Positions 519 to 35,424 of a stretch of DNA of 37,147 nucleotides are shown here, one piece after another. The stretch's first letter is position 1. Each line of letters opens with the position of its first letter. Under the pieces are notes generated by a model. The model was given only the letters and a program-made list of their open reading frames with translations. It had not been told where the DNA came from and ran no database searches. The DNA lies in contig JBAXSP010000006.1 of assembly GCA_037130655.1 (NCBI GenBank), forward strand, positions 1 to 37,147, in the 5' to 3' direction. Origin of the DNA: a bacterium. GTDB lineage: Bacteria > Patescibacteriota > Minisyncoccia > Phycocordibacterales > UBA9973. Both the position numbers and the translations under genes were made by a program.

Positions 519-2276
519 TTATTGTTTCTTCTTGAAGAATACTCGAGCAATCACAATGATAAACAAAATGATGATGAGCAGAATCAACCAACCAATGAAT
601 GATGTTGGGAAGAAACCGTTTCCAAAGACCGCAGATGCACCAAGTGTTGAAGAAGCAGTAACACTTGTACCTTTGACAATCGGAGCAACTGGTCCTGAAC
701 GAGTTGTTGTTTTTGTACTACCAACTTTTTGTGTTTGTACAAACATCTTATCCCCCACTGAAGTCCCGAGATTATTTGACGCAACAAGTCGGTAGTAATA
801 AATACTGTTTGGATTCAAATCAGTTGCAACGAAACTGTAATATGACTGACCAACAACTGAAAGATTTTGTCCTGGGGTTGAACGGAGTAATACATTATTT
901 GCATCAAAGATTTCAAAATACACATTCGCAGTTGTATTCGGTGCGTACACAATACCAGCAAGTGTTGCGGTAGTTTTGGTTGCAGATTTTGCAATCAATG
1001 TCACCGCAGTCGGTTTACCTGATTGAGTTGTTCCACCTGTTCCAATTCCTCCTGTTCCACCACCTGAAAAAATACAAGTTCCGTCATTGATGGTTGCTCG
1101 TGCATTATAGTTTAGTGCTGTTGTGATAGTACAACCATAGACATAGTTATTTTGATAGATACAAGAATTATCACTAATTGTTGCATTTGGATTGTAGTTT
1201 AATCCTTTTGGATCAGTACAGCCAGATTGACCACCTCCGGTGCCGTACACACAAGAACTAGGTGTATTGTTTCTTGTTGCGTGTGGATTGAAGTTGTTGG
1301 CATTAACATCCATACATCCATAGATAATTCCTGACCCTCCCCCGTAAACACAAGACCCGTCGTCTTTTGTTGCGTTTGGATTGTAGTTTGAAGCAGTATT
1401 GTCAGTGCAACCAAGGATCGCTTGGTTTGCATTATTTTTCGGAGACTCATCATTGTCAGTTGCACTAGTACAAGCTGGATCACTTGGATAATCAGTATAT
1501 CCATCTGCGTCATTGTCTATTCCGTCATTACATTGATATACCTGCGGTGCTACTTTTGGAATAGTAAAATTGATTGAAGTAGTTGATGTTGCGGGACCAG
1601 CAACCGCTTTGACGTAGATCGTATCACCAGGAGCAAATATCGAAAGATCAAGATTTGCTGTAAAAGTTGTTGGCCCTTGTCCTGCAATTGTTTGTACTGC
1701 AGTTTTATTATTTAACGCATTATTTTTTCCATACACAAAATACACATCTGTCGGACCTGCACCAGTGATAGAAAAAGTTGCCTTTGCAGTCACCGTTGCC
1801 GATGTTGGTGGGTTTGGATCAACACTGATCATTGAAACACTCGTAGCATTAGGTAATGGAGCTGGAGACATGAAGGAAATAGCATTATTATCATACACAG
1901 CACCACAATTAGAAACAGTAGCTACTGTTCTGAAAAAATACATCTGACCTTGAACAACTGAAACAGTTTGTTTGAGTATTCCTTTTGCTGTATAAGACTG
2001 CGCAACAGCTGGGTAATATACTGGCCCCATGTTACCTCCATTCATAAAACTCGAATTATCAGAAACTTCGATTTGGGGTTTTATATACACTATTGTACCT
2101 ATCGGAACAATTACTGGTGTTGGATCGTATTGTGCAGAAAGTTCAAAACTAGTATTTGATAACTGTGTTGCTTTCAAGTTTGTTACTGTTGCTGGACATG
2201 CAGCAAACACACTTCCTGAGATAAAAAGGATACCTAGTGCAAAAATAAAAGAAAGCTGTTTAATAAAATTTTTCAT
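519..2276 (-). CDS. Membrane-anchored surface protein with Cys-rich repeats and FN3/Ig-like domains
   Basis: Signal peptide (SVFA|A); CNDGIDNDADGYTDYPSDPAC motif; four GCxDxxAxNYNPxATxxDxSC repeats; YYYRLVASN FN3-like motif; C-terminal TM helix followed by KKKQ. Confidence 0.8.
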   Translation of the reverse strand: MKNFIKQLSFIFALGILFISGSVFAACPATVTNLKATQLSNTSFELSAQYDPTPVIVPIGTIVYIKPQIEVSDNSSFMNGGNMGPVYYPAVAQSYTAKGILKQTVSVVQGQMYFFRTVATVSNCGAVYDNNAISFMSPAPLPNATSVSMISVDPNPPTSATVTAKATFSITGAGPTDVYFVYGKNNALNNKTAVQTIAGQGPTTFTANLDLSIFAPGDTIYVKAVAGPATSTTSINFTIPKVAPQVYQCNDGIDNDADGYTDYPSDPACTSATDNDESPKNNANQAILGCTDNTASNYNPNATKDDGSCVYGGGSGIIYGCMDVNANNFNPHATRNNTPSSCVYGTGGGQSGCTDPKGLNYNPNATISDNSCIYQNNYVYGCTITTALNYNARATINDGTCIFSGGGTGGIGTGGTTQSGKPTAVTLIAKSATKTTATLAGIVYAPNTTANVYFEIFDANNVLLRSTPGQNLSVVGQSYYSFVATDLNPNSIYYYRLVASNNLGTSVGDKMFVQTQKVGSTKTTTRSGPVAPIVKGTSVTASSTLGASAVFGNGFFPTSFIGWLILLIIILFIIVIARVFFKKKQ

Positions 2277-2307
2277 ATAGTAAATTAGGAAACTAATAAG
2301 TGATATA

Positions 2308-2337
2308 ATTATACAATTAAAATGACCACTATGTCAA
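2308..2337 (-). promoter_or_regulatory. sigma70 promoter for the 585-aa gene
   Basis: Minus strand TTGACA-18 nt-TATAAT. Confidence 0.65.
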
Positions 2338-2473
2338 ATACACCTCTTTGGGCAAGATATGTTGCCTTAATTATGATACATAAATAGCCGTAAGCAAAGG
2401 GTATTTCTTACGTCTTATTTACGGAAAATGTCTGTTTGTGACCAAAAAATCTTATATAGCAAGCTCAAATAGC

Positions 2474-2502
2474 TTGACATATAAGTATTTTTTTGTTATA
2501 AT
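2474..2502 (+). promoter_or_regulatory. Perfect-consensus sigma70 promoter
   Basis: TTGACA (2474)-17 nt-TATAAT (2497) with extended -10 TG. Confidence 0.8.
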
Positions 2503-2539
2503 TTCAACAGATAACATTTACAACATAAATATAAAAGGA

Positions 2540-4708
2540 ATGAAAAAAGTAACAACTACCCTATTGGTGGCCATTATTGCCACCTTGTTCATTGGCCGTG
2601 CAAACGCCCAAAGTCCTACTGTAAACTTCCTGAAGAGCGACCCGATATTCGGCGGTATTATCGTCAAATATCAAGTTACCGGATTCAAAGCTCCAGCTAT
2701 GGTGACTTTTGAATATTCAGGAAGCTATGCTTTTCCAAAAGCACTTGGCAAAATTACAACCGACAGTATTTTTAGTGATACAACTATCACTGATACTATT
2801 ACGGTTTACAATAATGCTAAGTTACCTGCTCCGCCAAGTGTATTCTACGGACGTTATCGTCTACAAGATACACTAGGTACTGACACTGTTTCAAATGTAC
2901 TGCAGATTACTTCTTTACCGATTCCCGTAGTTCCAACAATTGACACTGTACAAATTAGTCAAAACGTTCACGACACCGTGTTCTCATCACTAATTTTAAC
3001 GTCAAATGTAAAAGGAATGTTACACTCTTATTTTGCTAACGGACCGACAAATTTTTTCGATCCGAGTAATCATTATGATAGTGCATCAGTTGATTCTGGA
3101 ACAAATGTGAACTATTCACATATCATTCCAGGAACAATTCCAAATTCATATAGCTATGTAGGCTATATTTTCACCAATCCTGCTGGTAGTGACACCCTCG
3201 GCGTAATGAAAATTGCACCGTATGTGACACAACAAAAACCAAATGGAGCAATGATTGGCGTCAGTTGTAAAAACAAACAAATTACTGTTGATGTAAAAGT
3301 CTTCGGTTTTGATTTAACTACAACATGTCAAATTAAGTACGGAACTACGTCAGCAACACTGACAGACACGATTCGTCGTGTTATTGTTTCAGGGAAAGGA
3401 ATGCAATTGATTTCATTTACCACAACGGACTCACTGAAAGCTAATACGACGTATTACTTCCAGGTTCGTTTGTCAAACAGCAAAGGATACACTGACTTAC
3501 AAATGGTAAGTTATTATATCGGGAGCGATCCGGCTGTATTCACACTGACCACTGATACTGGTTGGACATTGGATATTGATCCGGTAAATGGAAAAGTTAG
3601 CGTGAAGTGTTACGGAAGTTACCAATTAGCCACTAATTCAACCAGTGCCTCTATTAGAGCATTTCTTGCATCAGACACAACCACTGCTGTTAACAGCAGT
3701 TCTTGGACAACAACCGGTTCAGCAGGTTCTACTCCTGTTTTCCTTTTTCAAAATCAGCCTTGGTCAAAAGCCATACAGTATTTTGTAAAGATTATTGGAG
3801 AAGATGACTTGGGAACATTCGCTAAAGGAAAATGGATACCTGTCTTTATGACAACAATGAGGCCGTATTCGCTCATGATAACGAAAGTTACAGTGAACAA
3901 AAGCGGACGTTCTGCTGATGTGACTTGTAAGTATGTAAATACTGAAAAAGTGACATCGGACAATGTAGCAACATACGACAGTGACTCGACCTTTGCAAAC
4001 TTTCAAACAACCAGTTTGAAAACTTGTATTGGTGACAGTGGAACAGTAACTTTTACTATTCCAGTATCGAAAGATACCTATTACTGGGTAAAAGTTTCTG
4101 GTGCTAATACCATTGGAGATCACGCTGTATCAAATGTGATGAAGTTCAAATTAAATTTATCTGCATTTTCATACACGATTACAAATATCGCAATGGACAA
4201 TGTAGGTAAAAAAGCCACGGTGTATATCCACTACCAAAATACCGAAGGAACAACTTCGACGGTATATGTGAAATTGGATAAAAACTCAAACTTCAGTAGT
4301 CCGATAACAAGTGATCCAATTGCTTGTCTGAATGACTCAGGAAGTGCCTGGTTCACGGTTTCGAACCTCGATGCCGATTGCTACTACGTAGTAGCAACCG
4401 GTGACAATTCTGATCAAGTACACACAACATCAGGAGTAGCTTATTTTCAATTGAACACAAAGCCATACGTTGGCATTGAAACAATTGAAAAAGATATCAT
4501 GTCGGTGTATCCCAACCCAACGAGCGAGCAAGTGATCATTGATTTCAATGATAGTTACACTGCTCCATTCGTACTAATTGACCTCAAAGGTCAAATTGTA
4601 TTGAATAAAAGAATTGTTGCAGGTGAACGAATCGATGTAAGTACTTTCCCTCGTGGAATGTATGTATATCGTGTTGGTGAAAAAACCGGTAAGTTGCTTT
4701 TGCAGTAA
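2540..4708 (+). CDS. Secreted beta-rich (Ig/FN3-like) protein with C-terminal T9SS type A (Por) sorting domain
   Basis: Start moved to ATG 2540 (MKKVTTTLLVAIIATLFIGRANA|Q), downstream of the promoter. C-terminus VYPNPTSEQVIIDF...LIDLKGQIV...IDVSTFPRGMYVYRV...KLLLQ. Confidence 0.8.
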   Translation: MKKVTTTLLVAIIATLFIGRANAQSPTVNFLKSDPIFGGIIVKYQVTGFKAPAMVTFEYSGSYAFPKALGKITTDSIFSDTTITDTITVYNNAKLPAPPSVFYGRYRLQDTLGTDTVSNVLQITSLPIPVVPTIDTVQISQNVHDTVFSSLILTSNVKGMLHSYFANGPTNFFDPSNHYDSASVDSGTNVNYSHIIPGTIPNSYSYVGYIFTNPAGSDTLGVMKIAPYVTQQKPNGAMIGVSCKNKQITVDVKVFGFDLTTTCQIKYGTTSATLTDTIRRVIVSGKGMQLISFTTTDSLKANTTYYFQVRLSNSKGYTDLQMVSYYIGSDPAVFTLTTDTGWTLDIDPVNGKVSVKCYGSYQLATNSTSASIRAFLASDTTTAVNSSSWTTTGSAGSTPVFLFQNQPWSKAIQYFVKIIGEDDLGTFAKGKWIPVFMTTMRPYSLMITKVTVNKSGRSADVTCKYVNTEKVTSDNVATYDSDSTFANFQTTSLKTCIGDSGTVTFTIPVSKDTYYWVKVSGANTIGDHAVSNVMKFKLNLSAFSYTITNIAMDNVGKKATVYIHYQNTEGTTSTVYVKLDKNSNFSSPITSDPIACLNDSGSAWFTVSNLDADCYYVVATGDNSDQVHTTSGVAYFQLNTKPYVGIETIEKDIMSVYPNPTSEQVIIDFNDSYTAPFVLIDLKGQIVLNKRIVAGERIDVSTFPRGMYVYRVGEKTGKLLLQ

Positions 4709-4747
4709 TTTCTTTTATTTTAGTTAGTTCTTTTTTATAAAATCAGG

Positions 4748-4831
4748 GAGTCGTCAGTAATATGACGGCTCTTTTTTTTTGGTTCAATAATTAAACAAAA
4801 AGAAAAACACCCATCGGGTGTTTTTCTTTTT
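4748..4831. terminator. Two hairpins between the converging T9SS-domain gene and 16S gene
   Basis: GAGTCGTCA...TGACGGCTC plus T-run, and AAAAAGAAAAACACCC-ATC-GGGTGTTTTTCTTTTT (bidirectional form). Confidence 0.7.
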
Positions 4832-4844
4832 GTTGTTTGTATTT

Positions 4845-4893
4845 GTATAAGAATTAAGATTCGAACAAAATCTACTTTATTTTGTTTCGTTTC
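4845..4893 (-). other. 3' arm of the pre-16S processing stem
   Basis: Its reverse complement (GAAACGAAACAAAATAAA...CTTAATTCTTATAC) matches 6923-6984. Confidence 0.7.
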
Positions 4894-5024
4894 AACCAGG
4901 TCTTTCCCTGGCGTCACTGTATTTTTAGGTCCATACATCATGACCATTATGTACTCAATTGAAGTACACAATATCGACATTCAATACTCAATCATTCCGA
5001 AGAACAGATTGGAGTACCTTTTCA

Positions 5025-6898
<1,874 letters not shown>

Positions 6899-7328: not shown

Positions 7329-7559
7329 ATGGGAATTATACATTCAATACTGCCATCTATTCAGATCGCCCTCTCAGTTATTCTTATCATATCTATCTTG
7401 CTTCAACATCAAAGCGCCAGTGTTGGTTCTTCTTTTGGTGGAACTGAAGGTAGTTCTGTACACATGACTCGTCGTGGTTTCGAAAAAGTACTCTTTGTTA
7501 CAACTATTGTAGTTGCAATATTGTTTGCTATTTCTGCATTCATCGCCGTTTTGTTCTAA
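7329..7559 (+). CDS. secG: Preprotein translocase subunit SecG
   Basis: 76 aa, two TM helices, ILLQ...GSSFGG...RRGFEKVL. Confidence 0.92.
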   Translation: MGIIHSILPSIQIALSVILIISILLQHQSASVGSSFGGTEGSSVHMTRRGFEKVLFVTTIVVAILFAISAFIAVLF

Positions 7560-18081: not shown

Positions 18082-18155
18082 CCGCCTTTAGCTCAGTTGG
18101 TTAGAGCACAGAGCTTATACCTCTGCGGTCCTTGGTTCGAATCCAAGAAGGCGGA
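18082..18155 (+). tRNA. tRNA-Ile(UAU), CCA not encoded
   Basis: CCGCCTT/AAGGCGG acceptor stem, GCTC/GAGC D-stem, CAGAG-CTTATAC-CTCTG anticodon arm (TAT), CTTGG-TTCGAAT-CCAAG T-arm, discriminator A. Confidence 0.93.
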
Positions 18156-18376
18156 CAAGGTAGAAAATAATGAACTGCTTCATTATTTTCGACACTTGTC
18201 CGAGACGGAGGCGTAATTTTTCACCAGAAAAATAGCCGAGTGAGTTTGTGTCAAAAACACAAACGCAAGACCTTTTCAGAATTTTTGTGAGTGACAACGA
18301 AACAAAAAATCGAAAAGGTGTACGGGTTCTGTAAGAACGGGGTCGCGAAATTTTTCTGGTGAAAAATATTCGTGAC
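18156..18376 (+). repeat. tRNA-3'-associated structured element containing module copy A (18240-18350)
   Basis: Shares AATGAACTGCTTCATT, CGGAG, CGGGGTCGCGAA and ATTCGTGAC in the same order with 25947-26153. Confidence 0.8.
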
Positions 18377-18389
18377 GACAAAATTGAAA

Positions 18390-18422
18390 TTAAAAAATAT
18401 CCGCACTGCGGATATTTTTTAA
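18390..18422. terminator. Bidirectional terminator
   Basis: TTAAAAAATATCCGC-ACT-GCGGATATTTTTTAA. Confidence 0.75.
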
Positions 18423-21400
18423 TCTGTTGTAGCAGAAACATCTGCAGGTGGTGTACCTGAATCAGCAGGAGGAGCAGGTTCTTCTGTTGGCGGTGTCCCA
18501 CTATCTCCACCAGTACTTTCTTCTGCAGGAGGAGTTACGTCACCAGTATTATTACTACTACCTCCTCCGCTACTTTGGTTTGGTTGAACATTTTGTTGTT
18601 GAAGCAATTGTTGTAATTGTGTTTTTGTAATACACACATCATCCAAACACAATTCTTTTGTATGAACTTTACCGAAGAATACTTCTTGTAATGTATTGTT
18701 TGCATTTTCTAAGAATTGCTTCATGAGTGAGCCAAGTGATTGTGGTGTGTCAGTAGAAAGATCTGTCAGTGGAACAATCTTTAGATCAAGTTCTTTGATG
18801 GCATTGATTGCAGTGACAATCAAAGTCATTTGACTGACTTGTTTATATCCAAGCGCACCAGTATTTACTGCTTCTGGAATAAATTGTTCGACATTTTGAG
18901 CAATAACTCCACTGTAGAGAATTCCCCCGTCATTCAAATATGAATCAGCTTTCCATGAATATGTTTGCGGAACAATTCCCATGATAGCATCGAGTCCGCG
19001 AGTATATTCACTATGAATATCCTTCAATTTTTCATCAGAAGAACAAGAAACAATACCAGTACCGTTGGTTGCAAGCCCCACACAACCAACAAGTCCTGAA
19101 AATGTAATGGTTCCTGATGATGTAACACCAGCCGCTGCAGCAATAACACCAGAAGAGTTTACTTGGAATTGAGAAGATGCACCAACACTAAACAATGATA
19201 CTGGCGCAGATGTTCCAACACCAACGTTTCCACCGATAAATTGTGCGGCGTAGTTATTTGTTGCACCTGTTTGCGTGTTGACGGTGAGACCGTATGAGTT
19301 TGTGGCAGTACTTACTGCACCAGCTGCAATCAAAAGCGCATGAGAATTAGTGAGTGTTGTATTACTTCCTTTGATCGCACCACCTGCGATATACATATTT
19401 GCACCGTTAGTAACAGTAATAGCATTTGTTGAAGCCAGTGTTGGCATACCAAAAGCATTGGCTACAGCATTTGTCACTGTACCAGCAGCACCAGTACTTG
19501 TATCTGTATATGTTGAAGCTGTTGTGTTGATGTTGATTCCAGTAGTCCCCCATGCAGATGCAGACAAGTTTGCTCCAACATGCAACCACCCAGTAGGTAT
19601 TGTTGATGATCCGATTACTGTTTGACCAGTCCCGCGAACAGAAAAAACAGAACTACTGTTATTTTGACCATCAAATAAATAGTGTGATGAAGTAGCTCCA
19701 CTTGTGTTGAAGTTTGCTGCAATAACTCTAGTACTACTTGCGGCTTGTGTAGTTTCAAAATACCCACCATAGGCAATTGACGCAGTTCCTCCACCAGTAT
19801 TTCCAACACTACTATACACACCGTACCCAACTCTGCCGTTCACTGTTGTTGCAACAAAATATCCTCCATAACTGTTAAATGAAGTATTAGCTAGTCCATA
19901 CACAGCAATGGCAGTTCCAGGAGAATTAGTACTTGCAATCGCAGTACTATGGATACCGTAGTTAGTACCAGATGATGTTACCACCTGGTTGTCCACCTTA
20001 AGTCCATACGTTGTTGCACCAGGACTACCGTCAGCCAACACAATGTTAGCTGCTCGTAATTTTGTTGATGATGCAGATGCAGTAACTGCAACGTCCAAAC
20101 TATATGCAGGTGTTGCTGTTCCAATACCAACGTTTCCTCCGATAAATTGCGCAGCGTAGTTATTCGTTGCACCTGTTTGTGCGTTGACAGTGAGACCGTA
20201 TGAGTTTGTGGCAGTACTTACTGCACTAGCTGAGATAAGTAAGGCATGAGTGTTTGTGATAGTTGCGTTTGTACTTTTGATTGGAGCACCAGTTATAGCT
20301 AAAGTTGCAGCATCGGTGATAGTTGAAGAACCGACAAAACTATATGTTGGTGCTTGAATCAAGAAAGCTCTTTGTGTTGTAAGTGCTCCCGTGTTGAACT
20401 GCACTGTTCGAGCTAGGTTGAAGTTTACATCAGTAGCTTCTGTTGAAGTTGCGAGTGCAAGATGAGCAGCACCAGTGAGGGTAAATGCTGTTGGGCTCGT
20501 TGATGTAGCTGCTACACCTTGTGTGAATGTTGTATTACCTGTGCCGTCAATTCTCATACGAACAGCAGGTGTCGCACCAGTAACAATACCGACAGAAGTA
20601 GTACTAAGTGAACGTGATTGCAATACAAGGTCTCCAAAAGAAGAACCGTTAACACCGTTCGAACCATAGATAATAGGACCGTTAGATGACGTATATATTC
20701 CAGAAGTTACTAATCCTGTCCACTTTGTTGTGTTTGGTGTTGTATAAAAAGTAATTGCCCCACTCATTCCAAAATCATATGGAGAGTTCGGTGAAGTACT
20801 TGTACCAAAAAACATAGAAGGAGTGTTTGCTCCGTTTAAAATAGTCAAAGCTCTTTGCGGAGTAGTTCCGGACATTGCACCCAAGATAAGTGAAGTTGAT
20901 CGACCCATGATCGCCCCACCTTCAGCAGTACCGCTTGAACGACTCCAATACCCAACCTTAACACCATCAGTGCCACTTGAACGATAAAAATCACCAACTG
21001 GATAGAATGTTTCAGCCCCTGACATTGTTGCTGCATCCAAAAATTGAGCGGCCAAGTTTGTTGTCGCACCCGTTGGTGCATTGACGGTAAGTCCGTACGC
21101 CGCGGTTGCAGTAGATACTGCGCCGGCTTGCACTAAGATTCCATGAGAACTAGTGATTGTCGCATTGGTGCCTTTGATTGGAGCACCAGTTACCGCAAAT
21201 GTTGCAGCATCAGTAATCGTCGAAGCACCGACAAATGAATAGGTTGGAGCTTGGATACGAAATGCACGTTGTGTGGTTAGTGCACCGGTATTGAATTGTA
21301 CGATGCGAGCTAGGTTGAAGTTAACATCACTTGCTTCAGTTGAAGTTGCGAGTGTTGTATGTGTTGCACCAGTGAGTGTAAATGCTACCGGACTACCCGA

Positions 21401-22822
21401 AGTAGAAACACCTTGGGTAAAAGTTGTATTACCAGTACCATCAATTTGTATACGAGTATTACTTGCTTGTGATGTTCCTCCGGTCAAAAAGTATAAAGAT
21501 TTACCTGACGAACCTGTACCGATCAAAAGATTTCCACCAGAACCAGCACCGATATTGTACAAGTATGCATCATTTGCTACGCCCATCACCCCGCCAGTAT
21601 ATCCAGAACTATTGATTCCCATATCGACATATCCTGTCGTCTCACTACCATTATCTGCTGTTGCAACAACATCTGAAGAGGCTAATGTTCCCGCATTAGT
21701 GTTTTGGATATTTAATTGCAAATAACTATTGATACTACCAGTACCTTTGACAACATTTACAGAACTTGTTACACCTGCTGCAACCAATAACTTTTCTGGA
21801 TTTGTTCCATCAAAAGAAGTGGTACCGATCGCCATACGATTGTTTGCTTCATCATATGTAGAATTACCAAACAATATTGAACCTTTCGTTACGTTTGAAG
21901 TTGAAGAGAGTGTGAGATTTTCACCTGACGCAGTACCTCCAATAACTGATTGCCCTCCAGAAATTCCAGTGGAAAGATTGTTGGTAATAGTATCTACTAT
22001 GCGAGTAAGTCCTGTTGAAAAAGTGAGCGTATTTTCTTTATTGTTGAATGTAGACCAATCAGTACTTGAAAGCACACCAGTATTCGAATTATCTGCAACT
22101 GTGGTTGTAATAGATACTGACGTTGTTGATAATTGATTGGATACAGAAATAGCAATCCCATTATCATTATCACCTGCACTTGTTATAAAATCAGAAGACT
22201 GTAATTTTCCGTTGAAAGTATTCCAGTCAGACGAACTAAGATATCCGTCTGTTGCAGTATCAGCAAGATCGATAGAAATAGTATTGGCAGTATTTCGAAG
22301 CGGTAAACTGAAACTAAGAGTGTCTTGTTTTCCATTAAACATAGACCAATCAGTTGATGTCAGTAATCCTCGAGCAGAAGCAGATGCGGTAGGAAAATTA
22401 AATGTATGGACTGTTCCTGTTGAACTAATATTAAAATCACTCCCAGTTGTTCCTGTTGCAAATGTTTGTGTACTTCCAGTTAGTCCATTCAAAGACTGGA
22501 CTGCACTACTGACCCCACCTGAAATAGTCACTGTTGTAACACCACCTGATTCAGTTGCAACTACACCAGCACCGACAAAATCAAGTGCTTTTGTTTGATA
22601 GGTAAGATTTGTTCCTTCATCACGAGATTCCAAAATCCCAACAGTACAGTTTGTAGAACCAGGAGTACAAGTTGGATCGAGTGTTTCGCCTGGTGTATAT
22701 GGTGAAGTTGAAGGTGCTGCAAAAATAGTAAGACCAATTCCAAACACAACAAAAAACAACAACGAAAAAAGCAATCGCCAGTGAATGCGCACAGAAGTTG
22801 TAATGTTTTTTATTATCGACAT
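18419..22822 (-). CDS. Large fibre/adhesin-like surface protein with peptidase S74-type (intramolecular chaperone) domain
   Basis: N-terminal TM/signal; three G.L.S.DW..FN.K repeats; GNVGIGT motifs; internal ~140-aa duplication; SSDEKLKDI...GLDAIMGIVPQTYSWK...GVIAQNVEQFIPEAV; acidic Pro-rich tail. Confidence 0.8.
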   Translation of the reverse strand: MSIIKNITTSVRIHWRLLFSLLFFVVFGIGLTIFAAPSTSPYTPGETLDPTCTPGSTNCTVGILESRDEGTNLTYQTKALDFVGAGVVATESGGVTTVTISGGVSSAVQSLNGLTGSTQTFATGTTGSDFNISSTGTVHTFNFPTASASARGLLTSTDWSMFNGKQDTLSFSLPLRNTANTISIDLADTATDGYLSSSDWNTFNGKLQSSDFITSAGDNDNGIAISVSNQLSTTSVSITTTVADNSNTGVLSSTDWSTFNNKENTLTFSTGLTRIVDTITNNLSTGISGGQSVIGGTASGENLTLSSTSNVTKGSILFGNSTYDEANNRMAIGTTSFDGTNPEKLLVAAGVTSSVNVVKGTGSINSYLQLNIQNTNAGTLASSDVVATADNGSETTGYVDMGINSSGYTGGVMGVANDAYLYNIGAGSGGNLLIGTGSSGKSLYFLTGGTSQASNTRIQIDGTGNTTFTQGVSTSGSPVAFTLTGATHTTLATSTEASDVNFNLARIVQFNTGALTTQRAFRIQAPTYSFVGASTITDAATFAVTGAPIKGTNATITSSHGILVQAGAVSTATAAYGLTVNAPTGATTNLAAQFLDAATMSGAETFYPVGDFYRSSGTDGVKVGYWSRSSGTAEGGAIMGRSTSLILGAMSGTTPQRALTILNGANTPSMFFGTSTSPNSPYDFGMSGAITFYTTPNTTKWTGLVTSGIYTSSNGPIIYGSNGVNGSSFGDLVLQSRSLSTTSVGIVTGATPAVRMRIDGTGNTTFTQGVAATSTSPTAFTLTGAAHLALATSTEATDVNFNLARTVQFNTGALTTQRAFLIQAPTYSFVGSSTITDAATLAITGAPIKSTNATITNTHALLISASAVSTATNSYGLTVNAQTGATNNYAAQFIGGNVGIGTATPAYSLDVAVTASASSTKLRAANIVLADGSPGATTYGLKVDNQVVTSSGTNYGIHSTAIASTNSPGTAIAVYGLANTSFNSYGGYFVATTVNGRVGYGVYSSVGNTGGGTASIAYGGYFETTQAASSTRVIAANFNTSGATSSHYLFDGQNNSSSVFSVRGTGQTVIGSSTIPTGWLHVGANLSASAWGTTGININTTASTYTDTSTGAAGTVTNAVANAFGMPTLASTNAITVTNGANMYIAGGAIKGSNTTLTNSHALLIAAGAVSTATNSYGLTVNTQTGATNNYAAQFIGGNVGVGTSAPVSLFSVGASSQFQVNSSGVIAAAAGVTSSGTITFSGLVGCVGLATNGTGIVSCSSDEKLKDIHSEYTRGLDAIMGIVPQTYSWKADSYLNDGGILYSGVIAQNVEQFIPEAVNTGALGYKQVSQMTLIVTAINAIKELDLKIVPLTDLSTDTPQSLGSLMKQFLENANNTLQEVFFGKVHTKELCLDDVCITKTQLQQLLQQQNVQPNQSSGGGSSNNTGDVTPPAEESTGGDSGTPPTEEPAPPADSGTPPADVSATTD

Positions 22823-26329: not shown

Positions 26330-26728
26330 ATGAAAAAGTACATTGCAATTTTATTTTTTGCCTGCATGGCAACAACGAGCTCCTTTGCTCAAAAAAACAA
26401 CTCTTCTGATACTTTAACAAAAGAACCTGTATTGATGTATGTCAAAGCAACTTCTGCGTTTATTGTGTCTGATTTTAAGCTTGATGAAGTAAAATTTGGT
26501 GATTACCCAATGGTGACAGTGCTAATGATGAGAGACACTATGCATCTTACACAAGAAGTGCTTCCTATCGAACTTACCGCCGGAAAATATGTATACTCTG
26601 CAGATTTCAAAGATGTGATTAAAAAAACCACCTCGGAAATTACAGCAAATGTACATTGGAACAAAGGGGTGGAGGAGAAATTTTTCTCAGCATGCTCATC
26701 TGGTTCTCGTATCATTGTTGTCCGTTAA
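26330..26728 (+). CDS. Hypothetical secreted protein
   Basis: MKKYIAILFFACMATTSSFA|Q signal peptide; own promoter, and terminator hairpin at ~26751-26779. Confidence 0.75.
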   Translation: MKKYIAILFFACMATTSSFAQKNNSSDTLTKEPVLMYVKATSAFIVSDFKLDEVKFGDYPMVTVLMMRDTMHLTQEVLPIELTAGKYVYSADFKDVIKKTTSEITANVHWNKGVEEKFFSACSSGSRIIVVR

Positions 26729-32630: not shown

Positions 32631-32661
32631 TTAGTCATTAGTCACCGGTCATTAGTCATTA
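32631..32661. repeat. TTAGTCA heptamer array overlapping a stop codon
   Basis: TTAGTCA TTAGTCA CCGGTCA TTAGTCA TTA. Confidence 0.75.
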
Positions 32662-35424
32662 CTTGCGGTATTTTGCCATAATTTCGGCTTCTACTTCTTC
32701 TCGCAGTCTACCGTATTTAACATATGAAAGTTCTTTCAATGAATCAACAATTGCTTTATTCCCTACTGGAAATTCTGCCAAATGCATATTGAATGGTTTT
32801 TGTGTTGGTACACCATTTACAATCATCGAAACGTACGCATTCAAATTTTCTTGCTTCGTAATATCACTTGCGGTAAAGGTCGGAGCAAATTTTGATTCCA
32901 AGAATGTTGCATCTTCTGGAGACACGCGCATGACACACATTGAGCCCACGTTTCCAAAGATTGCATTCTTTGTATCTTCTGGAAGCTGTGCAATGTATTG
33001 GTGAGCCACATTCAATGACAATCGATATTTTCGAGCTTCGGACAAAATAGATGCGATTGCTGGAGTGGTGACGTTTTGGAATTCATCGATATACAAATAG
33101 AAATCATTTTTTTGTTCACCGCGCATATCAGTTCGAGAAAGTGCAGCCATTTGAATCTTGCCAACCAAAATGAGGCCGATCAAATTCGCATTGATTTCTC
33201 CCAATCGTCCTTTTGACAAATTGACCAACAAAATCTTTTTCTCGTCCATAATCTTTCGAAAATTAAAGACTGAATTTTGTTGTCCAATAACTGGTCGCAT
33301 AATGTCGTTTGAAACAAATGGATCAAACTTACTCGAAATATATGGCACGAAGTTTGCCAATCCTTGATCCCCTGTTGTCGCCTCAGCGGCTGTCCAGAAT
33401 TGATGGATGATTGGATTTTTACATTTAGATAATTTCAAATCTCTGAATGCTTTGTCTTGCAATACACGAGTAATTTCAAGCAATGTTGAACCAGATTCTG
33501 GGTCTTCCATGACAAGCATCGCAGCATTTCTGAAATATTGTTCAAACATCGCCCCGCCACCGGCTTTCATATCGAAGAGTTGATTGAAGATATTCATCAT
33601 CTCGTTGATGACAAAGGTCTTTTGTTCAGGAAATCGTTCATCATATTCGAGCATATTGAGCCCCATTGGACGCGCAGTATATGCTGGATCAAAGTAAATC
33701 ACATCATCGATACGGTGCGGTGGAATATACGAAAGAATATCTTGCACATCGTCACCGTGTGGATCGATAAAACAACAACCGTCACCATTTTCAATATCTT
33801 GTTTGATGAGCTGTTTAAGAGTGACTGTTTTACCAGTTCCTGTCTGACCGATCACATACAAGTGGCGCATACGATCTTCTCGGGAAAAATGAATTGGTGT
33901 ACGGACCCCGCGGTATTCGTTGTACCCGAGCAATACGCCATTTTTACTCATCTCAATTGGAGCAGGACCTTGACCTGCGCGAGCTTGCTCAACATTAACC
34001 ATAGAACCGATACCGTATGGAAAGTGCACAAGCGTAGCCAATTCTTTCAAATTCATTACCATTCGTTCATCGTCTCTAAAATTACGAAAGGTAAAATCTC
34101 GTGCAACTTCAGTTTGATTATTCTTTTTCAGTTCTTTGAAATGGATTGCATTGCTTCCCGCTCGAGTAAATTGAGCAAAAACTGATTCAAGGTCATTCAA
34201 CATACTTTTTGCGCGATCTGCTGTTTCAGCAGAAGTAAACATACGAATATTTACTCCGGTCATTGTACTCTTTAATTTATCATTGATTGCAGAAACAACT
34301 TTTTCATCAGGCTCCTTTTTTTCTTCTTTCTTTTCATCTTTTTCATCAGAGTCACTAAACATTCCGAACAATGGATTGAAAATCAAATCCTTGGTTGCAT
34401 TTTTTAAGTCTGTATCAAACTCACCAAAAATACCACTTTTTTCCTTTTCTATTTTTTCACCTTTTTGTGCTTGCCCAAGTAAACTATGAAAATGTTTGAT
34501 TGACCCTTCATCACTTGGACGAATGATAAATTGAATGGCTGCACCTTCACCCGTTGCTTTGATTTTGTTGAATGCATTGATGATTGATTCTATTGGGTCT
34601 TGATCGAGCATGTCATAGGTCTTGATTGGAAACACATCATTCTCTGCATAAAAACCTACCGCACCAGAAACAGCACAATTTGGCGCAAAAATATTGTAGT
34701 CATTCGGAGCTTCTTCAATACGAGCAAGCGGATAGACTGAAAGTAATTGTTTTTCAAATAATTCTATTTTTGATCGCGGAACACCAACAAACAATACAAC
34801 TTGCTCTTCGTTGTGTGAAATAGTAAATTCAATTGAATAATGACTTTCGTCTTTGTTATCTCTACCGTCTCCAATAAATTGCATTCCTGCAAAAAATTGC
34901 TCAATTGCACCAAGGATAATTTTCCAATCACGTGTATCTGATGCGTTTTTGTCTGGCATTGAAATCTTGAACAATGCCGTATTCAACGATTTATGCAAAG
35001 CTGTCCCCTCTTTGAGTCCAGGAATTTTTTGTTCAGCAATAAGATACTGCACCAAAAAACGATGAAAATCATCTTCAATGTGTGGGTCGTTCATTTTTTC
35101 GACAACTGACAACGCATTACGAACACCTTTTGAAAGTAAAATACCGAGTAATTCTTCCATCGTTCGATCATGAGATTCTGGTTCAAGTCTAAGTACCAGT
35201 GCCTGCTCGTGCTTTTCTGGAAGATGTAACGATTGTGCGAGCACTTGTTCTTTTGGTACCTCAGCGTATTGTTTAACAACTTCAAGAGAAGCTTGTTCTT
35301 TGGGATTTTCGTGACCTTCCCGTTTGAGTAACGCTTCGCGTTCTTTGAGGTGATTACGTAAATAGAGTAATTCTTCTTCTGGACTAGAAAAATTTTGAGA
35401 AATGATTTGCTCTTTGAATTGCAT
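32659..35424 (-). CDS. VirD4/TrwB/HerA-like ATPase (type IV secretion coupling-protein-like)
   Basis: RMRHLYVIGQTGTGKT, FIDPHGD, LYIDEFQN, LSEARKYRL..AHQYIAQL, AIFGNVGS. Confidence 0.88.
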   Translation of the reverse strand: MQFKEQIISQNFSSPEEELLYLRNHLKEREALLKREGHENPKEQASLEVVKQYAEVPKEQVLAQSLHLPEKHEQALVLRLEPESHDRTMEELLGILLSKGVRNALSVVEKMNDPHIEDDFHRFLVQYLIAEQKIPGLKEGTALHKSLNTALFKISMPDKNASDTRDWKIILGAIEQFFAGMQFIGDGRDNKDESHYSIEFTISHNEEQVVLFVGVPRSKIELFEKQLLSVYPLARIEEAPNDYNIFAPNCAVSGAVGFYAENDVFPIKTYDMLDQDPIESIINAFNKIKATGEGAAIQFIIRPSDEGSIKHFHSLLGQAQKGEKIEKEKSGIFGEFDTDLKNATKDLIFNPLFGMFSDSDEKDEKKEEKKEPDEKVVSAINDKLKSTMTGVNIRMFTSAETADRAKSMLNDLESVFAQFTRAGSNAIHFKELKKNNQTEVARDFTFRNFRDDERMVMNLKELATLVHFPYGIGSMVNVEQARAGQGPAPIEMSKNGVLLGYNEYRGVRTPIHFSREDRMRHLYVIGQTGTGKTVTLKQLIKQDIENGDGCCFIDPHGDDVQDILSYIPPHRIDDVIYFDPAYTARPMGLNMLEYDERFPEQKTFVINEMMNIFNQLFDMKAGGGAMFEQYFRNAAMLVMEDPESGSTLLEITRVLQDKAFRDLKLSKCKNPIIHQFWTAAEATTGDQGLANFVPYISSKFDPFVSNDIMRPVIGQQNSVFNFRKIMDEKKILLVNLSKGRLGEINANLIGLILVGKIQMAALSRTDMRGEQKNDFYLYIDEFQNVTTPAIASILSEARKYRLSLNVAHQYIAQLPEDTKNAIFGNVGSMCVMRVSPEDATFLESKFAPTFTASDITKQENLNAYVSMIVNGVPTQKPFNMHLAEFPVGNKAIVDSLKELSYVKYGRLREEVEAEIMAKYRK

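Follow-up and report, generated by a model that had tools for sequence, protein, structure and literature searches.

The stretch of DNA analysed here, called the window throughout, is 37,147 nucleotides (nt) long and represents one entire contig (JBAXSP010000006.1) of the nine-contig assembly GCA_037130655.1, a metagenome-assembled genome of Paceibacteria/Nomurabacteria type within the Patescibacteria, or candidate phyla radiation (CPR), to which we refer as G000. Towards its beginning, a single open frame of 722 codons runs on the forward strand from an ATG at 2540 to a stop codon at 4706-4708. Its product, P0001, is the subject of this report: a predicted secreted protein which ends in a type A C-terminal domain (CTD) of the type IX secretion system (T9SS). 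This domain directs export through the type IX system of Bacteroidota, which needs an outer membrane, and CPR are generally inferred to lack both. The coding sequence (2540-4708, +, stop codon included) is preceded at 2474-2502 (+) by a sigma-70-type promoter, TTGACA and TATAAT spaced by 17 nt with a TG extension, which matches the consensus at 12 of 12 positions and so deserves the epithet "perfect" given to it in an earlier reading of the locus made from the sequence alone (hereafter the sequence-only reading). Promoter-like sites as a whole class are not enriched in the region, nine being seen where 9.1 are expected. An alternative, longer frame would begin with a GTG at 2438, upstream of the promoter, which makes 2540 the likely start. 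A hairpin and T run resembling an intrinsic terminator occupy 4745-4774 (+), 37 nt past the stop.

P0001 can be divided into four parts. Residues 1-23 (2540-2608, +) form a predicted Sec-type signal peptide, helical at residues 7-17 in our model; the N-terminus, MKKVTTTLLVAIIATLFIGRANA|QSP, displays the n-, h- and c-regions of a Sec signal, and cleavage is predicted at ANA|Q, exposing Gln24, in keeping with the A|Q ending previously proposed. Signal peptides and cleavage sites were assigned here by a crude heuristic rule of our own, the same predictor being used on all sets. The passenger, residues 24-641 (2609-4462, +), appears as six tandem beta-sandwiches resembling immunoglobulin (Ig) or fibronectin type III (FN3) domains, as judged from an AlphaFold model, Foldseek and Pfam matches below threshold. 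A low-confidence linker, residues 642-654 (4463-4501, +), leads into the CTD at residues 655-722 (4502-4705, +), a seven-stranded beta-sandwich; the predicted local distance difference test score (pLDDT) is below 50 across residues 642-662. The full-length model, built on a five-sequence alignment with a mean pLDDT of 69.5, is all-beta, with about six sandwiches and the final seven-stranded domain. Its best Foldseek matches are the FN3 strings of gp130, LepR and OSMR, as well as macroglobulin (MG) domains, and a Pfam scan found no enzyme domain in P0001, with fn3 itself below significance.

The assignment of the last part as a genuine type A T9SS CTD, anticipated by the sequence-only reading, is carried by profile score, fold, position and motifs alike. 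TIGR04183, the profile hidden Markov model which that reading had proposed as a check, matches P0001 at 40.7 bits (E 1.7e-10, cut-off 23), and PF18962 (Por_Secre_tail) matches residues 656-717 at 39 bits (E 9.8e-10, cut-off 27); a six-frame search of G000 recovers the domain at nt 4505-4693 with 45.2 bits. The match ends four residues before the stop. A CTD-only model derived from an alignment of 68 CPR CTDs has seven strands and a pLDDT of 93.4, and fits the F. johnsoniae CTDs 8glk_D (NucA; template-modelling score, TM, 0.80/0.81; root-mean-square deviation 2.0 Å) and 8glj_D (FspA; TM 0.78), as well as 8qb1 (0.78), followed by the CTDs of mirolase, RemA, RemZ, RgpB, PorZ and PorU. A profile of the same 68 sequences, searched against the PDB, likewise finds 8glk_D (5e-17), 8glj_D (5e-16), mirolase (7e-10) and RgpB (2e-6), and an ESM Atlas look-up was consistent with this identity. 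Both F. johnsoniae structures were solved inside the SprA-PorV translocon, and the T9SS CTD is described as a seven-stranded Ig-like beta-sandwich (PMC11285876, PMC10994853). The motifs pointed out earlier are present as YPNP at 657-660, DLKG at 681-684, G706-x-Y708 and K718. G684 is the Gly of the loop between strands beta3 and beta4 and K718 the Lys of the last strand, both of which matter for T9SS function (PMC11285876).

In its overall plan P0001 resembles the type A cargo of Bacteroidota, including NucA, FspA, RemA and RemZ of F. johnsoniae, RgpB of P. gingivalis and mirolase of T. forsythia, which also combine a Sec signal, a passenger and a terminal CTD of about 70 residues. The loop Gly, the near-terminal Lys and the fold (TM 0.78-0.81 to 8glk_D and 8glj_D) are shared with this cargo, and many T9SS adhesins possess a passenger string of Ig/FN3-like domains as P0001 does. 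P0001 differs from them, however, in its orphan passenger and in its producer, a 0.63-Mb member of the Patescibacteria without detected T9SS or BamA.

Whether the gene belongs to that producer is an immediate concern, as both ends of P0001 are Bacteroidota-like, and the sequence-only reading had itself named a mis-join from a Bacteroidota genome as a hazard. A fragment misjoined or misbinned into a CPR genome would, however, have to be reconciled with several findings. Firstly, the contig carries housekeeping genes and, 317 nt downstream of the P0001 gene, the 16S rRNA gene (5025-6898, -) that had already been noted as adjacent and of CPR type. Secondly, a 4995-nt contig from another assembler spans 1900-5065, and with it both junctions, with no differences and at even depth, and reaches 1830 nt further upstream; this contig comes from the run that probably yielded G000 and is therefore a second assembly, not second data. 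Thirdly, in another species of the same genus (G001; loci L018 and L096) a P0001 homologue also lies beside the 16S gene, and, just as in the window, SecG, a solute-binding protein and RNase J come next. Finally, G000 holds three copies of the domain on three contigs, and 31 of 36 other family genomes contain it. The mis-join was rejected on these grounds, and, with contamination of G000 rated at 0.09%, we regard an artefact as exceedingly improbable. P0001 is resident in a Patescibacteria genome. G000 amounts to 630,524 bases and is rated 100% complete, and its RNase J has its closest matches in genomes labelled Paceibacteria, Paceibacterota, Nomurabacteria or Parcubacteria, with some generic 'Saccharibacteria', which agrees with the organism having been read as a CPR bacterium.

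Between the window and G001 the 16S genes are 85-91% identical and RNase J 78%, as opposed to some 30-33% for the CTD protein, and P0001 is therefore a fast-evolving resident gene. Its composition is uninformative as a test of transfer: the GC content of the gene (0.383, against a genome mean of 0.391 with a standard deviation of 0.028) and that at third codon positions (0.325) both fall within one standard deviation of long genes, and its codon-usage distance stands at the 81st percentile, with a native neighbour at the 90th. The surroundings were said to lack mobile hallmarks, and no integrase or transposase family was indeed found among the 10 large window ORFs (open reading frames) scanned.

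A second hallmark of Bacteroidota secreted proteins is found at the opposite end of P0001. Most CTD proteins of the family begin MKK…[AGS]|Q, and Gln directly follows the predicted cleavage site in P0001 and in its relatives P0002, P0003 and P0005. Using a single-best-site rule, which replaced a first count over any candidate site (46/58 versus 29/403), we observed Gln at +1 in 30 of the 49 CTD proteins of the family and in 7 of 16 such proteins of other CPR families, compared with 6 of 78 signal-like ORFs of G000 without a CTD and 5 of 137 ORFs in 80 Paceibacteria loci, one of these five being a P0001 homologue. The proportion among the family CTD proteins is close to the mean Q-value of 71% which Bochtler et al. 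(2018, PMC5837995) give for Bacteroidetes under the Q-rule for substrates of signal peptidase I (SPase I); the same source lists most Chlorobi below 9% and Ignavibacterium album at 77%. In contrast to Bacteroidetes, G000 limits the rule to its CTD subset, and no glutaminyl cyclase of the plant or animal type (PF05096, PF04389) matched in G000 at E≤1, with controls matched in 5 and 14 genomes.

The CTD is thus coupled, at the level of predicted signal peptides, with Q-rule signals and not with native CPR signals. Because the CTD travels with such a signal, the transfer most likely involved whole genes rather than the domain alone. Among the best 150 of 545 matches to P0001 at E≤0.001, those outside its few close relatives (see below) are mostly tail-only, located at the C-termini of their own proteins. 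Twenty-five of the nearest tail-only matches were looked up, and the seven which carry an organism name are all from Bacteroidota (Limibacter, two Chitinophagales, a Bacteroidia bacterium, a Bacteroidota bacterium, Paludibacter and a Bacteroidales bacterium). The donors were most likely Bacteroidota-like, which falls short of proven Bacteroidota. The proposal of a "repurposed transfer" in the sequence-only reading gains support from these named matches and the Q-rule signals, as well as from the synteny in the genus and the family-wide occurrence of the trait.

Nine further orphan secreted proteins of G000 possess MKK…[AG]|Q signals in the style of Bacteroidota but no CTD, and the secretome of this genome looks two-classed. 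They are encoded in the window at 26330-26728 (+) and elsewhere in G000 at C3:2738-3697, C2:144399-145604, C2:139440-140168, C2:8838-9392, C1:85782-86273, C1:5339-5755, C3:47480-47860 and C1:134065-134538. Neither these nine nor the lipoproteins of G000 matched a Pfam family over cut-off.

The distribution of the CTD among CPR is uneven. Counting genomes by TIGR04183 matches at E≤0.001 (unless stated to be over cut-off), we found the domain in 31 of the other 36 genomes of the family, in 2 of 24 genomes from the other families of the order, and in 33 of 401 genomes sampled evenly across the phylum (22 of 401 over cut-off, G000 included). Three CTD genes exceed the cut-off within the 630 kb of G000, whereas none did in the same search of 14 control genomes. 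Individual genomes have between 0 and 8 copies, and members of the genus between 0 and 3. Position is strictly maintained: in all 74 ORFs considered (71 over-cut-off family ORFs and the three of G000) the match ends 0-16 residues before the stop, and for 20 of 20 ORFs in other CPR families this distance is 0-9 residues. Among 73 CTDs, PNP is conserved in about 94% (58-61 of about 66), the beta3-beta4 loop Gly in 70 and the two residues of G-x-Y in 73 and 72. The last-strand Lys is present in 48 of 73 family CTDs, with Arg in 11 more, and a comparison of 47 of 68 CPR CTDs with 112 of 129 external ones (Fisher p 0.004), whose sets are not like-for-like and whose rows are kin, provides a weak hint that constraint specific to T9SS is relaxed at this residue. 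Alignments A2 and A3 exclude one ORF with an internal stop (L160), A2 also excludes ORFs below 100 amino acids (aa), and the clustering of passengers excludes those below 150 aa.

The passengers borne by these domains are unrelated. The 65 proteins of at least 150 aa fall into 50 clusters, 46 of them singletons, and one cluster of 11 members is drawn from seven genomes with tandem copies included. Pfam detects PF18962 in 62 of 68 proteins, a few of which also match fn3, PKD, CHU_C, GEVED, CARDB, Kelch, sulfatase or S8 peptidase. Three mini-proteins of about 105 aa, L125 (G017), L138 (G014) and L147 (G015), lack a passenger altogether, the CTD coming directly after the signal peptide. For P0001 itself, a word-indexed homologue search returned P0002 as sole relative; the two proteins are 66% identical overall, and identity rises from 49-57% in domains D1-D4 to 74% in D5, 82% in D6 and 88% in the CTD. 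The syntenic orthologue, at 33% identity, keeps Gln at +1 and all CTD motifs.

Such passenger diversity would be expected if the family simply kept acquiring genes for secreted proteins from neighbouring Bacteroidota, with the Gln and the CTD roleless in their new setting and still visible because turnover outpaces decay. The repertoire of domains listed above mirrors that of T9SS cargo, copy number varies among genomes and within the genus, the coupling of the Q-rule with the CTD argues for transfer of whole genes, and the slight relaxation at the T9SS-specific Lys points the same way. Decay without a role is, however, difficult to reconcile with syntenic orthologues which retain Gln at +1 and every CTD motif at some 30-33% identity, with a CTD that is the best-kept part between P0001 and P0002, and with the finding that in none of the 74 ORFs the C-terminus has been lost or extended. 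The 11-member passenger cluster likewise suggests vertical descent and duplication in the family rather than continual replacement, the composition of the P0001 gene is native-like, and its passenger has no Bacteroidota relative detectable by HMMER. We consider this account possible, though on balance improbable.

No apparatus able to read the CTD was detected in its producer. Profile searches of G000 gave no match at E≤1 for SprA, PorV, PorU, GldM, GldK or GldN, and GldL reached 10 bits where the cut-off is 68. BamA was not found by the same means, which agrees with the inference, quoted in the sequence-only reading, that CPR generally lack both a T9SS and an outer membrane. PorV was found in none of 61 genomes of the family and order, and BamA reached its cut-off in none of them, two matches of 13-15 bits containing stop codons. 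SPase I, on the other hand, is present in G000 at 160 bits. The models for BamA, SPase I and the cyclases have positive controls, unlike those for the T9SS components, for which none of 14 control genomes reaches cut-off and GldN matches nothing anywhere.

Conceivably, an outer layer has escaped recognition in this family, or it handles CTDs by a divergent system of its own. As would be expected of something lineage-specific, the trait clusters in a single family (31/36 versus 2/24); G000 also encodes additional orphan secreted proteins with Q-rule signals and has lipoprotein genes beside two of its CTD genes, and the T9SS profile searches lacked a positive control. Yet BamA, SprA, PorV, PorU and GldK/L/M/N were not found in a genome rated fully complete, the searches for PorV and BamA were equally negative across the 61 relatives, the orphans match no Pfam family, and the one beta-rich candidate of 184 aa occurs in just 2 of 36 family genomes. 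We accordingly hold a hidden machinery to be very unlikely. That candidate (L167; G000 C2:8838-9392, -) is a secreted protein whose alternating pattern recalls a small barrel; it belongs to no Pfam family and was dropped as a CTD partner. As to the lipoproteins, the two CTD genes of G000 other than that of P0001 are each followed immediately by a gene for a predicted small lipoprotein (C2:41684-42010, +, and C4:30393-30917, -), and the P0001 gene has no such neighbour.

The reading which we favour, by somewhat more than an even chance, is that the cargo genes are resident in the family, that their products are exported by Sec, and that the CTD has been retained as a folded end module. Whole cargo genes would have passed from Q-rule- and T9SS-bearing, Bacteroidota-like bacteria into this CPR family, to be kept, duplicated and diversified there to between one and eight per genome. 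P0001 would be a Sec-exported surface or adhesin-type protein of beads-on-a-string form, crossing the single membrane of its producer, with cleavage by SPase I exposing Gln24. As neither an outer membrane nor a T9SS was found, the CTD should be unable to act as a translocation signal in the producer; transport by T9SS, CTD cleavage and attachment to anionic lipopolysaccharide would be impossible there, no machinery for them having been found in G000. The CTD may instead be under purifying selection as a constant, folded C-terminal base or docking module, while the N-terminal Ig-like domains would form the fast-changing, exposed part. A constant C-terminus joined to a variable N-terminus is the pattern of a surface protein held at its C-terminus, and a folded base or docking role is therefore favoured. 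We infer the direction of transfer, the export and the present role of the CTD.

Surface proteins of monoderms that are anchored at the C-terminus, through LPXTG and sortase or through membrane anchors, offer an analogy. P0001 shares with them Sec export, a constant C-terminus, a variable Ig-like N-terminus and a producer of monoderm type, and by this analogy may be anchored through its CTD. It differs in having neither LPXTG nor a membrane anchor, whereas the product of the neighbouring gene (519-2276) has the latter.

The same constant C-terminus and variable N-terminus would also fit a conserved receptor on another cell, and the exported CTD may dock from outside on the PorV loops, or on PorU and PorZ, of a Bacteroidota host and possibly be processed there, fixing the protein to the host. 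The CTD is intact, strictly terminal and T9SS-like, G684 and K718 included; in sequence and fold it is closest to the F. johnsoniae CTDs solved with SprA and PorV, the CTD-holding loops of PorV are extracellular (PMC10994853), and Bacteroidota are indicated both by the Q-rule signals and by the closest CTDs that carry an organism name. Three family genomes also encode proteins with nothing but a signal peptide and a CTD, which likewise fit this reading. However, most of the binding energy of a CTD comes from inside the SprA pore, so that a lower affinity is expected for free PorV (PMC10994853), and a CTD cannot be swapped at will even between two species of Bacteroidota (PMC11285876). The Lys is somewhat less well kept in the CPR set (47/68 versus 112/129; sets not like-for-like), the Q-rule is left unexplained since a signal peptide acts in the producer only, and the family has no known host. 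Exploitation of a host T9SS in this manner appears unlikely to us. Slightly less likely again is a more specific form of it, in which the family lives on Bacteroidota hosts, PorV catches the CTD, and PorU cuts it and links the protein by a covalent bond to the lipopolysaccharide of the host, anchoring the epibiont; the initial Gln may then be a second adaptation to the milieu of the Bacteroidota envelope. The sequence-only reading had hoped that either use of a host's machinery or a repurposed transfer would hint at the host. Bacteroidota-type donors or partners are indeed pointed to, but this is weaker than hoped, as a donor lineage is not necessarily the host.

Several observations weigh against the retention of the CTD as a folded base in a resident, Sec-exported protein, or at least temper it. 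No envelope partner or anchoring mechanism for P0001 was found, and the protein is without a membrane anchor; the lack of positive controls for the T9SS models and the crudeness of the signal-peptide predictor have been mentioned above. At the level of RNA, nothing from two runs of the likely source sample was placed on the P0001 gene, and in other runs just about 5-9% of the words of the window were present, at its 16S end. The passenger is a near-orphan, with four proteins, the query included, at E≤1e-10 among 1.84 billion, and, the passenger being almost without relatives, it is the two ends of P0001 that bear the case for a Bacteroidota origin. Preferential conservation of the CTD is clear against P0002 but not at greater distance, since P0001 and P0003 share 38% identity in the CTD and 23-40% in the other domains. 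The conserved motifs determine the fold, and of their residues the Lys alone contacts PorV (PMC10994853); their conservation therefore speaks for selection on a folded domain rather than for a particular role. The genomes counted above are related and do not constitute independent counts. Finally, a FastTree phylogeny of 70 CPR and 137 external CTDs over 78 columns, built after omission of three CPR and eight external rows in which fewer than 55 columns were filled, does not settle between one acquisition and many. Labels change 25 times on this tree, as opposed to 58.2 ± 3.1 times in 300 shuffles, and the largest all-CPR clade has 19 members with a support of 83; the CTD of P0001, though, sits among external rows on long branches, and these external rows were chosen by their likeness to it and mostly carry no taxonomy.

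The remaining features of the window are of a more general nature. The gene divergent from that of P0001 (519-2276, -) encodes a 585-aa surface protein without a Pfam family, which combines a non-Q signal, VFA|ACP, with a C-terminal membrane anchor in the usual CPR style. A Cys-framed repeat some 35 residues long, GC.D..A.NYNP.A..D.SC.Y, occurs four times in this protein, and the gene has its own promoter matching at 12 of 12 positions (2337-2308). Two perfect sigma-70 consensus promoters consequently stand back to back at 2308-2502, in the 263-nt spacer separating both surface-protein genes. The 16S gene measures 1874 nt against a model of 1533 positions. Within it, some 340 nt at 5394-5730 have no counterpart in the genome of the same genus, which shows about 90 nt at this place; this stretch is probably an intervening sequence and accounts for the length of the gene. 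Beyond it, a SecG-like ORF lies at 7329-7559, and the window also encodes RNase J, RecG, FtsH, methionine aminopeptidase, tmRNA and a VirD4/TraG-like protein. The last of these (32659-35424, -) is a coupling protein of 921 aa with TrwB_AAD_bind and TraG-D_C domains, belonging to the type IV secretion-like system of Patescibacteria. A tRNA-Ile gene at 18082-18156 (+) has the anticodon TAT, an uncommon mode of reading AUA, and a secreted protein of 1467 aa (18419-22822, -) carries Peptidase_S74, an endosialidase chaperone, near its C-terminus, as in phage tail fibres.

In the literature we found no paper linking T9SS CTDs to Patescibacteria or CPR under the terms type IX, Por_Secre_tail, TIGR04183 or PF18962; one preprint touches on each of the two topics, though not in connection with each other, and the available text of a freshwater CPR ecogenomics paper leaves the type IX system unmentioned. 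New here are the coupling of the CTD with the Q-rule, the contrast at the level of families, and the positional and motif statistics.

To our knowledge, the hosts of most Patescibacteria are unknown and the mode by which they attach to them is open. Against this background, we describe a family which keeps one to eight genes per genome with both Bacteroidota export hallmarks, without the machinery that reads them. The CTD proteins are candidate attachment proteins and provide a testable pointer to partners or donors of Bacteroidota type, while the family as a whole offers a natural experiment on the function of a T9SS CTD without a T9SS. Should docking on the T9SS of a host prove true, it would represent a new way for one cell to exploit the secretion system of another.

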